DNA from: Escherichia coli
GTDB taxonomy: Bacteria > Pseudomonadota > Gammaproteobacteria > Enterobacterales > Enterobacteriaceae
DNA: 64,000 nucleotides
Assembly (NCBI RefSeq): GCF_003790525.1
Contig: NZ_CP033635.1
Reading direction: 5' to 3' (one strand)
A program made the position numbers and the translations under genes. The notes beneath the pieces are model-generated. The model saw nothing but the letters and a program-made list of their open reading frames with translations, was not told the DNA's origin and did no database searches. This document shows positions 16,636 through 51,915 of the stretch, piece by piece. Each line of letters starts with the position of its first letter. The first letter of the stretch is position 1.

Positions 16636-16663
16636 GTCAAAAAAAACGCCGGATTAACCGGCG
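16636..16663 (-). terminator. intrinsic terminator downstream of fadD
   Basis: Minus strand ACGCCGG-TTAAT-CCGGCGT followed by TTTTTTTT. Confidence 0.7.
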
Positions 16664-16683
16664 TCTGACGACTGACTTAACGC

Positions 16684-18369
16684 TCAGGCTTTATTGTCCA
16701 CTTTGCCGCGCGCTTCGTCACGTAATTCTCGTCGCAAAATTTTTCCGACGTTAGATTTCGGTAACTCATCACGAAACTCCACCAGCTTCGGTACTTTGTA
16801 GCCCGTGAGCTGACGGCGGCAAAAAGTCACCAGTGACTCTTCGGTAAGCGATGGATCTTTTTTCACAACGAAGATTTTCACCGCTTCACCACTAGAGCCG
16901 GAAGGTACGCCAACAGCCGCGACTTCCTGTACGCCAGGATGCTGCATGACGACATCTTCAATCTCGTTGGGATAGACGTTAAAACCGGAAACCAGAATCA
17001 TGTCTTTTTTACGATCGACAATGCGCAGGAATCCTTCTTCATCCATCACCGCGATGTCGCCGGTGTGTAACCAGCCATTTTTGATGATTTCATCGGTAGC
17101 ATCCGGACGCTGCCAGTAACCCAGCATCACCTGCGGTCCTTTGACACAAAGCTCACCTGGTTGACCAGGTGGTACTTCATTATCATCATCATCCACCAGT
17201 TTGGCTTCCGTCGACGGCACCGGCAAACCGATGCTACCACTATGATAATCAATATCATACGGGTTAACGCTCACCAGCGGCGCACACTCGGTCAGGCCAT
17301 AACCTTCCAGCAGATACTGTCCAGTCAGTTTCACCCAACGTTCTGCCACCACTTGCTGAACAGGCATCCCTCCGCCTGCGGAAAGATGCAGACTGGAGAA
17401 ATCCAGCTGCTGGAACTCTTTATTGTTCAGCAACGCATTGAACAAGGTGTTAACGCCAGTGATAGCGGTAAACGGATATTTCGCTAACTCTTTTACCAAC
17501 CCTGGAATATCGCGCGGGTTAGTGATAAGCAGGTTCTGCCCCCCCAGTTCGATAAACAGCAGGCAGTTAATGGTCAGTGCAAAAATGTGATACAGCGGCA
17601 GCGCCGTCACCACCAGCTCTTTGCCCGGATGCAACAGCGGACCATAGGTCGCGTTAACCTGTTCCAGGTTCGCCAGCATATTGCGGTGAGTCAGCATCGC
17701 GCCTTTCGCCACACCAGTGGTACCGCCGGTGTATTGCAGGAAAGCTAAATCTTCCGGCACCAGTTCGGGTTTGACGTACTGCATCCGGTAGCCGTTGTGC
17801 AGGGCGCTACGAAATGAAATGGCATCTGGCAGATGGTATTTCGGCACCAGACGCTTGATGTATTTAACAACGAAATTGACTACCGTGCCTTTTGCCGTAG
17901 ATAGCTGATCGCCCATACGGGTCAGAATTACGTGCTGAACGGCGGTTTTATCAACCACTTTTTCCAGAGTGTGGGCAAAGTTAGACACGATAACAATCGC
18001 CGATGCGCCGCTATCGTTAAGCTGATGCTCAAGTTCACGCGGGGTATACAACGGGTTAACGTTTACGACAATCATCCCGGCACGCAAAATGCCAAACAGC
18101 GCCACCGGATATTGCAATAAATTAGGCATCATCAACGCAACGCGATCGCCTTTCTTCAGTCCCAACCCTTGTTGCAAATAAGCGGCAAACGCGCGACTGC
18201 GTTCTTCCAGTTTGCGGAAGGTCATCACCTCCCCCATATTCACAAACGCGGGTTGATCGGCGTAGCGCGCGACCGACTGCTCAAACATATCTACCAGAGA
18301 TTGATAACGGTCAGGGTTGATCTCCGTCGGAACGTCCGCGGGATAACGGTTAAGCCAAACCTTCTTCAA
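16684..18369 (-). CDS. fadD: long-chain-fatty-acid--CoA ligase FadD, 561 aa
   Basis: ORF 16684..18435; the 561-aa product begins [33 protein letters not shown]..., implying a TTG start at 18369; AMP-binding motifs present. Confidence 0.93.
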
Positions 18370-34309: not shown

Positions 34310-34876
34310 ATGAATATCACTGCTACTGTTCTTCTTGCGTTTGGTATGTCGATGGATGCATTTGCTGCATCAATCGGTAAAGGTGCCACCCTCCATAAAC
34401 CGAAATTTTCTGAAGCGTTGCGAACCGGCCTTATTTTTGGTGCCGTCGAAACCCTGACGCCGCTGATCGGCTGGGGAATGGGCATGTTAGCCAGCCGGTT
34501 TGTCCTTGAATGGAACCACTGGATTGCGTTTGTGCTGCTGATATTCCTCGGCGGGCGAATGATTATTGAGGGTTTTCGTGGCGCAGATGATGAAGATGAA
34601 GAACCGCGCCGTCGACACGGTTTCTGGCTACTGGTAACCACCGCGATTGCCACCAGCCTGGATGCCATGGCTGTGGGTGTTGGTCTTGCTTTCCTGCAGG
34701 TTAACATTATCGCGACCGCATTGACCATTGGTTGTGCAACCTTGATTATGTCGACATTAGGGATGATGGTTGGTCGCTTTATCGGCTCAATTATTGGGAA
34801 AAAAGCGGAAATTCTCGGCGGGCTGGTGCTGATCGGTATTGGCGTCCAGATCCTCTGGACGCACTTCCACGGTTAA
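34310..34876 (+). CDS. mntP: manganese efflux pump MntP (YebN), 188 aa
   Basis: ORF 34256..34876; ATG at 34310 ([21 protein letters not shown]...) gives 188 aa. Confidence 0.92.
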
Positions 34877-35682
34877 TAAGAACGCTGCCAGAGGTGAATA
34901 TTAAAGTCCGTCTGGCAGTCGAACACTTCTTTTGCGGCCAGTGTTTGCCAGACTTCTGACTTCGCACGCCAGGCAAACGGCGTCATCTGCAATAATGCGA
35001 CGGCTTCGTCACCGCGAAGACGCATCGGATAACACAACTCATCACTCTGCTGTAATGTAAAACCTTCCAGTTGTTCTGCATGTGGTGCATGAAGATGTAC
35101 TTCATTGTAAATCAGCCCCTTCAGCTCCATCAAATGTCGCGGTCCCGGCGTGGCAGTAATGACCCAACCGCCAGGCTTCACTACTCGCGCTAATTCTTCT
35201 GCTTTACACGGCGCGTAAATACGTATTATGGCGTCCATACTGGTATCGGAAAACGGCAAACGGTGGCTGGAAGCAACACAAAAAGTGACCTGCGGATAGC
35301 GTTTCGCCGCCGCTTTTATCGCTACCTTCGAGACATCCAGACCAAACGTGGTGATTTCGGGCAGCGCATCGGCAAATGCGTGTGTGTAATACCCTTCACC
35401 ACAGCCAATATCCAGCACCGCCGTGGCCTTTTCATCAAGCCGTTCCCGCAGTTGGGCGACAATTGCATCACGCAGCGGCTGATAATGTCCGGCATCTAAG
35501 AATGCGCGGCGTGCTTGCATCATTTCCGCGCTGTCGCCCGGATCACGAGACCGTTTATGCTGAACGGGCAGCAGATTGACATACCCTTCTTTCGCCATAT
35601 CAAACTGATGTCACTGGGGACAGATATAGCTGTTTTTTTCACGCGAAAGAGGCTGATGGCAAAGTGGACAGGAAAACGACAT
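34873..35682 (-). pseudogene. rlmA: 23S rRNA (guanine745-N1)-methyltransferase RlmA (RrmA/YebH), interrupted by in-frame TGA at codon 24
   Basis: Minus strand from ATG at 35682 reads [34 protein letters not shown]...; stop at 35617..35619; longest intact ORF is 34873..35598 (241 aa from Met29) versus the 269-aa characterised protein. Confidence 0.6.
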
Positions 35683-35775
35683 GACAACTCCGGCAGGATA
35701 CTAAAGGCCGCAAGTGTAACGCGAATCACGCGGCGGGCAAATATCCGAACGCCAGGAGCGAAGATAAAGCAAAGT

Positions 35776-35803
35776 AAAAAGCCTCGCATTCGGCGAGGCT
35801 TTA
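35776..35803 (-). terminator. intrinsic terminator downstream of cspC
   Basis: Minus strand AAAGCCTCGCC-GAAT-GCGAGGCTTT followed by TT. Confidence 0.7.
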
Positions 35804-35847
35804 TAGCGAGATTGAAGCGTATTCACACTTCAGATCAGTGGATTCGA

Positions 35848-36057
35848 TCAGATAGCTGTTACGTTAACAGCTGCCGGACCTTTCTGGCCGTCCTGAATTT
35901 CGAACTCAACGTTCTGACCTTCAGCCAGAGTTTTGAAGCCATTACCCTGGATAGCGGAGAAGTGTACGAACACGTCTTTGCTGCCATCAGCCGGAGTAAT
36001 GAAGCCAAAACCTTTAGACTCGTTGAACCACTTAACCTGACCTTTAATCTTTGCCAT
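35848..36057 (-). CDS. cspC: cold shock-like protein CspC, 69 aa
   Basis: Full-length ORF; [22 protein letters not shown]... with RNP motifs. Confidence 0.97.
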
Positions 36058-36069
36058 TTGAAAAATTCC

Positions 36070-36213
36070 TTAGATTGTTTTCTTCGCCCGCAGGCATAAC
36101 ATAGATAAAACTGACACATTACTGCATGAGGCACCAATATAAGGCTCGGCAGAGAAGCGGTATTCAACGTCAACGTGTTTACTCAGGACTTCTTTACTGA
36201 AAATGCCACACAT
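36070..36213 (-). CDS. yobF: small protein YobF, 47 aa
   Basis: Minus-strand translation [47 protein letters not shown]; ends 12 nt upstream of cspC (yobF-cspC operon). Confidence 0.82.
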
Positions 36214-36882
36214 AAACAGAACTGTACCTCGTTTAACCCGAAATCTGTTATCACATACAACGTTAATTATGGCAAGCCATTTTTAAACATGTCTCGATCA
36301 GACGCACAAATCTCGATACGTCTTCCACTTTTTTTGCACACTTATGCAACGGAATACGCGCCGATATATCATTGTGCTTAACCTTGCCAGTTCAGGCAGA
36401 TACTTAAACTGACGTATTTTCTAACATAGTTCAATAAGTTCAGTTGTTCCATGCCAATGGGAGAAGTTATTACATAGTGCGTGCAATATCACATTTTCTG
36501 CTATGCAATGAATAAAAAGTTATATCACTTTTTCTCATAAAACAGTCAGTTAACGGCCATCAATCACCCCAAAGAGAAGTCAATCGCCAAAGGTATTGTA
36601 AATTTAAAATAAGAAAAATTGATGAATGCGCAAAAAAATCAAGAGAGAAACGTTTCGCTAATAAATAATACCACGCTTAATCACAAATCCGATGTAAACA
36701 TCCTAATAAATTAATGGGCTAAATATCTTTTTCTGATATCCCGTTACGCAAATAAATAATATGATAATTATTTGAAGTCAGACCAGAGTTTTAATTTGAA
36801 GCAGTTGCACCATGACAGTGCGTATAATCAGGATGAATTGAGTAACCCTTCAACGACGGGGTTACTCAAGATTGAGGAAGGA

Positions 36883-38897: not shown

Positions 38898-40271
38898 ATG
38901 CCAAAAGTTCAGGCCGACGGCCTGCCATTGCCCCAGCGATACGGTGCGATATTAACCATTGTGATTGGTATTTCGATGGCTGTCCTTGACGGCGCAATCG
39001 CCAACGTCGCCCTGCCAACAATCGCCACGGACCTTCATGCCACGCCAGCCAGTTCCATCTGGGTAGTGAACGCCTATCAAATCGCCATTGTCATCTCCCT
39101 GCTCTCATTTTCGTTTCTGGGCGATATGTTTGGCTATCGACGTATTTATAAATGCGGTCTGGTCGTTTTTCTGTTGTCTTCACTGTTCTGCGCCCTTTCT
39201 GATTCGCTGCAAATGCTCACCCTTGCGCGTGTCATACAAGGTTTCGGCGGTGCAGCGTTGATGAGCGTTAATACCGCACTTATCCGCCTGATCTATCCAC
39301 AACGTTTTCTGGGTAGAGGGATGGGCATAAACTCGTTTATTGTTGCCGTCTCTTCTGCTGCCGGGCCGACAATTGCTGCAGCAATCCTCTCCATCGCATC
39401 CTGGAAATGGTTATTTTTAATCAACGTACCGTTGGGTATTATCGCCCTGCTTCTGGCGATGCGTTTTCTGCCACCCAATGGTTCTCGCGCCAGTAAACCC
39501 CGTTTCGACCTGCCCAGCGCCGTGATGAACGCGTTAACCTTCGGCCTGCTTATTACTGCATTGAGTGGTTTCGCTCAGAGGCAATCGCTGACATTGATTG
39601 GTGCGGAACTGGTGGTAATGGTTGTCGTTGGTATTTTCTTTATTCGCCGCCAGCTTTCTCTTCCCGTACCGCTGCTACCGGTGGATTTACTGCGTATCCC
39701 GCTGTTTTCACTTTCTATTTGCACATCTGTTTGCTCTTTCTGCGCACAAATGCTGGCAATGGTTTCCCTTCCCTTTTACCTGCAAACCGTGCTCGGGCGT
39801 AGTGAAGTCGAAACAGGTTTACTTCTGACACCGTGGCCGTTAGCAACAATGGTGATGGCTCCACTGGCAGGCTATTTGATTGAACGCGTACATGCAGGAT
39901 TGCTGGGTGCTTTAGGGTTATTCATCATGGCTGCGGGGCTTTTTTCCCTGGTTCTGCTGCCAGCGTCACCTGCGGATATCAATATTATCTGGCCGATGAT
40001 CTTATGTGGTGCTGGATTTGGCTTGTTCCAGTCACCCAATAACCACACCATTATTACCTCCGCTCCTCGCGAACGTAGCGGTGAAGCCAGTGGCATGTTA
40101 GGGACGGCTCGTCTTCTGGGTCAGAGTAGCGGCGCGGCTCTGGTAGCGCTGATGCTAAATCAGTTTGGTGATAATGGTACGCACGTCTCGCTGATGGCTG
40201 CGGCTATTCTGGCGGTGATTGCAGCCTGTGTCAGTGGTTTACGTATCACTCAGCCACGATCCATGGCATAA
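38898..40271 (+). CDS. yebQ: MFS transporter YebQ, 457 aa
   Basis: ORF 38787..40271; ATG at 38898 (MPKVQADGLPLPQRYG...) gives 457 aa; 14-TM DHA2-type profile. Confidence 0.9.
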   Translation: MPKVQADGLPLPQRYGAILTIVIGISMAVLDGAIANVALPTIATDLHATPASSIWVVNAYQIAIVISLLSFSFLGDMFGYRRIYKCGLVVFLLSSLFCALSDSLQMLTLARVIQGFGGAALMSVNTALIRLIYPQRFLGRGMGINSFIVAVSSAAGPTIAAAILSIASWKWLFLINVPLGIIALLLAMRFLPPNGSRASKPRFDLPSAVMNALTFGLLITALSGFAQRQSLTLIGAELVVMVVVGIFFIRRQLSLPVPLLPVDLLRIPLFSLSICTSVCSFCAQMLAMVSLPFYLQTVLGRSEVETGLLLTPWPLATMVMAPLAGYLIERVHAGLLGALGLFIMAAGLFSLVLLPASPADINIIWPMILCGAGFGLFQSPNNHTIITSAPRERSGEASGMLGTARLLGQSSGAALVALMLNQFGDNGTHVSLMAAAILAVIAACVSGLRITQPRSMA

Positions 40272-51591: not shown

Positions 51592-51725
51592 CAATATTTT
51601 CCTCCCGCGCTAAAGATCACATAATCTTAACAAGAATGTTAAAAAACGCTGGACTCAGACAGTAGAGTGTGTGTTATGGTTGACTATAAAGTCAGCGAAG
51701 GGAATGCTTCTGGCTTTTAACAGAT

Positions 51726-51828
51726 AAAAAGAGACCGAACACGATTCCTGTATTCGGTCCAGGGAAATGGCTCTTGGGAGAGAGCCGTGCGCTAAAAGTT
51801 GGCATTAATGCAGGCTTAGTTGCCTTGC
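51726..51828 (-). ncRNA. sdsR: small regulatory RNA SdsR (RyeB)
   Basis: Minus strand reads GCAAGGCAACUAAGCCUGCAUUAAUGCCAACUUUUAGCGCACGGCUCUCUCCCAAGAGCCAUUUCCCUGGACCGAAUACAGGAAUCGUGUUCGGUCUCUUUUU, matching remembered SdsR including its 3' terminator hairpin and U-tail; sigma-S-type -10 (CTATTCTTAA) just upstream. Confidence 0.85.
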
Positions 51829-51915
51829 TCTTTAAGAATAGATGACGACGCCAGATTTTCCAGTTTGCGTGCAAAATGGTCAATAAAAAGCGCGGTGGTC
51901 ATCAGCTTAAATGTT

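Follow-up and report, generated by a model that had tools for sequence, protein, structure and literature searches.

The closest described counterpart of the gene studied here is RlmA(I) of E. coli (also RrmA or YebH), represented by the structure PDB 1P91 and the NCBIfam family NF008300, which combines the zinc ribbon PF21302 with a class I SAM-dependent methyltransferase domain. Its zinc ligands were reportedly assigned as Cys5, Cys8, Cys21 and His25 in the structural work of Das et al. 2004. The rrmA mutants and the Keio ΔrlmA strain (JW1811) are K-12 laboratory alleles, for which ribosomes without m1G745 are the expected molecular phenotype. The Keio deletion strain has a wild-type doubling time, with slower growth and poor reporter synthesis appearing only under overexpression load (PMC7056703), and an rrmA mutation raises viomycin resistance, as PMC6588947 states with reference to Gustafsson & Persson 1998. 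The region of the exit tunnel that holds m1G745 contacts TnaC and macrolides. Homologous architectures, with zinc ribbon plus methyltransferase, are seen by NCBIfam matches in the G748 methyltransferases RlmA(II), TlrB, Erm(32), MyrA and ChrB, but these act on another target nucleotide (G748) and belong to other organisms. In Gram-positive bacteria, the loss or gain of this neighbouring methylation alters macrolide or ketolide susceptibility (PMC4605293).

The gene under study lies within a 64-kb stretch of E. coli DNA (the window) and occupies the same locus as RlmA(I), between cspC and mntP. Its reading frame (rlmA, also rrmA or yebH) runs along the minus strand from 35682 to 34873 and comprises 269 codons plus the stop, in agreement with the NF008300 equivalog and with PDB 1P91; the RefSeq name at this locus is rlmA, 23S rRNA (guanine745-N1)-methyltransferase. 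Direct translation of the minus strand, beginning with the ATG at 35682, revealed an in-frame TGA at codon 24, as the initial annotation had proposed. However, that annotation had located the stop at 35617..35619, which is 6 nt off, as codon 24 corresponds to 35611..35613 on the minus strand (35682 - 69 = 35613). Since codon 24 is a stop, the full-length enzyme known as RlmA(I) is not the normal product of this gene. What precedes the stop is an N-terminal remnant of 23 codons (35614..35682, minus strand; MSFSCPLCHQPLSREKNSYICPQ), which carries the zinc ligands Cys5, Cys8 and Cys21. What follows it contains a residual open reading frame of 241 amino acids plus stop starting at Met29 (34873..35598, minus strand), recognised by the ORF list, Pfam and NF008300, which had also been the start reported originally and which encodes the final 18 residues of the zinc ribbon and the entire SAM-methyltransferase domain. 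The expected molecular phenotype is the same as that of the rrmA and Keio alleles, whereas the genetic nature is different: a point nonsense mutation in a wild, SMS-3-5-like background, which could be leaky.

The gene is flanked by cspC/yobF on one side and by the convergent mntP on the other, and the order cspC - rlmA - mntP is conserved. It has its own Shine-Dalgarno sequence, a GGAG at 35688..35691 (minus strand) identified by direct reading and identical in SMS-3-5, which is placed after the cspC terminator. Because of this arrangement and of the convergence on mntP, a polar effect of the stop on a downstream cistron is not expected. The 3' ends of rlmA (minus strand) and mntP (plus strand) converge and overlap by 4 bp (34873..34876), so that early termination in rlmA could in principle alter antisense transcription into mntP. 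Gathering-level Rfam matches in the window include the overlapping antisense pair SraC/RyeA (plus strand) and SdsR/RyeB (minus strand) at 51722..51866 and sroD (minus strand) at 16640..16725. In addition, an Rfam model of the cspA-type thermoregulator matched at 35773..36233, over the yobF-cspC leader and the gene directly upstream of rlmA.

Our main reading, to which we give a probability of about 0.85, is that the stop is authentic and stems from a vertically transmitted nonsense mutation (coding-strand C to T) in the rlmA gene of a small SMS-3-5-like sublineage of phylogroup F, which would remove most or all RlmA. The comparison with SMS-3-5 supports the first part of this reading. A 25-kb query was ~100% identical to E. 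coli SMS-3-5 and to some ten other complete genomes, and a base-by-base comparison found the whole 64-kb window to be collinear with the reverse complement of NC_010498.1 positions 1324715..1388714, with four substitutions and no indels over 64 kb. One of these substitutions falls at 35613, where the plus strand has A in place of the G of SMS-3-5, thus converting CGA (Arg24) into TGA (R24*) on the minus strand. As this is the sole base change and the rest of the gene matches the intact SMS-3-5 allele at 100%, the stop is the derived state. Codon 24 is CGA in SMS-3-5 and also in about 20 other E. coli loci examined. The three remaining differences are missense changes: A139T in the manganese exporter gene mntP (GCC to ACC, 34724, plus strand), G396E in the MFS transporter gene yebQ (40084), and P70L in holE, encoding the theta subunit of DNA polymerase III (53938). 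RefSeq sets no pseudogene flags over the matching SMS-3-5 stretch, which, together with the lack of indels and the missense nature of the other differences, upholds the original view that the other genes of the window are full length and that the lesion affects a single codon rather than reflecting regional decay.

The allele is rare. When the 910-bp rlmA region was searched at 100% identity, no match was found among complete genomes, the best 33 being one base off. A 61-mer centred on the TGA likewise gave no hit among 5,426 complete E. coli genomes. Its counterpart with the wild-type base served as a positive control against masking of matches by the low-complexity filter and hit 4,605 genomes, of which 3,890 matched at ≥99% identity, so the empty result is meaningful. 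The TGA allele was also absent from GTDB species representatives and from JGI metagenomes. By contrast with these null results, looking up the exact 241-aa residual ORF retrieved 13 public contigs, and the DNA upstream of Met29 was read in the loci of ten of them, which fell into two groups. The exact TGA of the window was present in two loci, from the Logan assemblies ERR1623306 and SRR25608277. Another seven kept the CGA and had lost one A from the A7 run of codons 15-17, giving A6; the last one had a run of Ns upstream of Met29. The ERR1623306 contig, of 64.8 kb, occurs in three samples (ERR1623306 and two more) and, over 20,726 bases, departs from the window only at position 40084; it has the stop and mntP A139T and lacks the substitution in yebQ. 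All 2,360 bases of SRR25608277 agree with the window. The difference at 40084 makes ERR1623306 a distinct isolate that shares both the stop and mntP A139T. Therefore, at least two distinct isolates from unrelated projects carry the rlmA stop, and the presence of the same TGA in assemblies of independent read sets implies that it is passed on within a small natural sublineage and did not arise in assembly.

These data bear directly on whether the real genome has CGA and an intact rlmA, the stop being an error of sequencing or assembly, a candidate explanation that the initial annotation had listed. The absence of the TGA from the 5,426 complete genomes, the GTDB species representatives and the JGI metagenomes is what such an error would look like, as is the additional presence in the window of the private yebQ G396E, which is on record nowhere. 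Nevertheless, the recurrence of the identical TGA in independent runs of different projects (ERR1623306 plus two samples, and SRR25608277), the first of which differs from the window elsewhere (40084), makes an error highly improbable. Moreover, the substitution lies outside any homopolymer, and none of the four differing bases falls in a Dcm CCWGG site, so it does not resemble a typical systematic error. The lesion is thus real and heritable, and the proposal of a natural null or hypomorphic allele gains support from the four substitutions without indels relative to SMS-3-5, the CGA codon elsewhere and the independent read sets.

The stop could alternatively have arisen in the laboratory, through chemical mutagenesis or passage of the strain. 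Every one of the four differences from SMS-3-5 is a protein-altering G:C-to-A:T transition, the pattern that alkylating mutagens leave. Still, G:C-to-A:T is also the commonest class of spontaneous mutation, and four changes are too few for a significant bias. The distribution of the individual alleles is also at odds with a single mutagenic event. HolE P70L is found in 669 collection blocks and in NCBI drafts that are 100% identical to the window around holE, and is therefore an older, common natural allele and not a private one. The rlmA and mntP changes are common to other runs, with MntP A139T co-inherited with the stop in ERR1623306 and SRR25608277. Only YebQ G396E is private: it had no record in an index of 153 billion genes and was absent from the otherwise identical ERR1623306 contig, and it either belongs to the source isolate alone or reflects a mistake in that isolate's sequence. 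The four changes therefore arose stepwise, at different depths of the tree, and we rejected the mutagenesis signature, a laboratory origin being very unlikely. Beside an intact rlmA, the same MntP A139T protein is found in numerous distant E. coli backgrounds (111 collection blocks, 98-99% DNA identity), from which we conclude that it is homoplasic and was not brought by recombination. MntP A139T and HolE P70L were considered as markers of the sublineage and discarded, since both are common alleles in other backgrounds and do not delimit it.

At the protein level, the intact SMS-3-5 RlmA scored 477 bits against NF008300, for which the curated cut-off is 303 bits, and shared 266 of 269 residues with the K-12 enzyme of the crystal structure PDB 1P91, where residue 24 is Arg. 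The Pfam zinc ribbon (PF21302, Zn_ribbon_RlmA) covers residues 3-46, and the Methyltransf_25/31/11 models match at reference residues ~84-189, which are identical in the window, so that a class I SAM-dependent methyltransferase domain is still encoded. An uninterrupted CCCH zinc ribbon joined to this domain is not: all four ligand codons are present, but the TGA at codon 24 parts Cys5, Cys8 and Cys21 from His25 and the catalytic domain, in accordance with the earlier observation that the three Cys precede the stop and His25 follows it. The zinc ribbon is therefore split midway by the stop. The conservation of this region was analysed in an alignment of 137 full-length homologues (34-56% identity) obtained from a search of 1.84 billion representatives. 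Cys5 was conserved in 135 of them, Cys8 in 134, and Cys21, His25 and Asp28 each in all 137, with the complete CCCH set present in 133. These counts fit the reported assignment of the four ligands. They also fit the role of the zinc domain in rRNA binding in which it has been implicated (PMC4615748). Position 24 is itself variable (Gly in 51, Asn in 41, Arg in 22, Trp in one, and also Ser, Lys and Gln), is never Cys, and has a sense residue in all 137 sequences, as had been anticipated for an alignment with orthologues. The stop hence stands where orthologues, close as well as distant, encode a residue, as corresponds to a nonsense pseudogene.

From this truncation inside an invariant domain we infer a loss of RlmA activity and of m1G745 methylation. 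Translation from the native start would stop halfway through the N-terminal CCCH zinc ribbon, with the 23-residue peptide as the predicted main product. Most ribosomes would be released at the TGA and the rest of the mRNA would remain largely untranslated. Carriers are thus expected to have little or no m1G745 in helix 35, where the exit tunnel is constricted, a deficit that E. coli would probably tolerate at small cost. Indeed, as the Keio knockout grows normally, a natural rlmA null should be tolerable; the slower growth attributed to rrmA mutants in the initial annotation, taken as a severe phenotype, does not hold for the clean Keio deletion (PMC7056703).

The allele may nonetheless fall short of a strict null and behave as a strong hypomorph. 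If the stop were leaky, with near-cognate Trp-tRNA reading the UGA often enough, a full-length RlmA(R24W) would be made, and m1G745 could be largely retained, as one enzyme modifies many ribosomes. The base after the TGA is a C, and UGA followed by C is, as Poole et al. 1995 reportedly found, the leakiest termination context in E. coli. On the other hand, UGA readthrough normally represents a small fraction of termination events, and strains other than K-12 usually carry the efficient Ala246 form of RF2, whose gene, prfB, lies outside the window; both facts weigh against substantial readthrough here. Trp-tRNA does compete with RF2 at UGA, and readthrough is measurable in E. coli (PMC10570021). 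Furthermore, all four zinc ligands are still encoded, and position 24 tolerates Gly, Asn, Arg, Ser, Lys, Gln and, once, Trp among the 137 homologues, which makes traces of an active R24W enzyme possible. Against this, a Trp beside the His25 ligand may disturb the ribbon, and the premature stop should destabilise the mRNA, long untranslated stretches being unstable in E. coli (PMC10666635). On balance, we regard retention of the modification by readthrough as unlikely.

Activity could also be preserved by a restart at Met29 giving an N-terminally truncated yet active methyltransferase. The AUG of Met29 sits only 12 nt past the TGA, and termination-reinitiation in E. coli tolerates spacings of +2 to +14 nt, variably and in a gene-specific manner, with little of it left at +38 nt (PMC10666635). 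In addition, the 241-aa product keeps the complete SAM-methyltransferase domain and scored 419 bits against NF008300 (profile positions 29-271), above the 303-bit cut-off. However, no Shine-Dalgarno or GGAG-like motif could be read in the 20 nt before Met29 (CCCCAGTGACATCAGTTTGAT), as had been noted at the outset, and position 29 is Met in only 3 of the 137 homologues; with the 12-nt gap, these features do not describe a programmed internal start or reinitiation pair. The hairpin in which the AUG lies is weak and falls short of significance (z = -0.6). The original expectation that reinitiation would be inefficient calls for a correction: reinitiation 12-14 nt past a stop can be appreciable in certain E. 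coli gene pairs, and a restart at 12 nt is not negligible a priori. Even if made, the restart protein would not have Cys5, Cys8, Cys21, His25 or the invariant Asp28 and should not recognise the rRNA substrate, given that the ribbon is retained by nearly all full-length members (complete CCCH in 133 of 137) and that the zinc domain has been linked to the binding of rRNA (PMC4615748). With no Shine-Dalgarno, an unconserved Met29 and none of the invariant Cys and His ligands of the ribbon, the product of such a restart is very probably inactive, and rescue by this route has a very low probability.

Programmed recoding, in which the UGA would specify selenocysteine or be read by a dedicated suppressor, has nothing in its favour beyond the in-frame UGA itself. 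The Rfam scan found no SECIS or other RNA family in the right place at E ≤ 10, the 62 nt starting with the UGA folded no better than shuffled sequences (z = -0.6), and the tRNA scan found no tRNA gene in the window. As the codon is CGA in all relatives and position 24 is unconserved and never Cys, we discarded a selenoprotein or any other programmed UGA recoding, the probability of which we consider practically negligible.

A nonsense mutation in rlmA is therefore retained as the preferred explanation, and it is not the only inactivation of this gene in natural E. coli. The A7 homopolymer of codons 15-17 is intact in the window (35633..35639, minus strand) and is the site of an A7-to-A6 frameshift in other E. 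coli, among them three complete ST131-like genomes (AVS0366, AVS0467 and AVS0971) in which RefSeq labels rlmA as 'frameshifted' and as a pseudogene. The A6 form was also present in seven read-set assemblies, in at least two backgrounds. Some of these A6 contigs have broken or split neighbouring genes, and they may represent read errors. The A7 run, possibly prone to slippage, would offer a separate way of inactivating rlmA. The frameshift of the AVS genomes resembles R24* in being an independent natural inactivation that affects the same N-terminal zinc-ribbon region and leaves the same 241-aa residual ORF, but differs from it in its origin by homopolymer slippage at codons 15-17, in occurring in another phylogroup and in being already annotated in RefSeq.

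Such recurrence could be taken to mean that loss of m1G745 is repeatedly selected in multidrug-resistant extraintestinal E. coli clones, by R24* in the SMS-3-5-like one and by the A7-to-A6 change in ST131-like ones, rather than being neutral decay, with MntP A139T possibly part of the same adaptation. Were that the case, loss of the exit-tunnel methylation might alter viomycin/capreomycin or macrolide susceptibility, or TnaC-type nascent-peptide regulation. Two events do not lift this proposal above a low prior, and we find it decidedly unlikely. We regard rlmA R24* as an ordinary strain-level pseudogene or probable null allele of a dispensable gene, one that involves no new mechanism. Strain-level pseudogenisation of a dispensable rRNA-modification gene is a known kind of event, and it is the specific R24* allele that appears to be undescribed and rare.

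For annotation, these results mean that rlmA in this genome should be called a pseudogene, and its carriers are predicted to be without m1G745. They also illustrate that a stop missing from 5,426 complete genomes can still be validated through public read-set assemblies. Finally, the carriers are natural isolates in which the poorly defined role of m1G745 could be probed, both in translation under load and in susceptibility to viomycin and macrolides.
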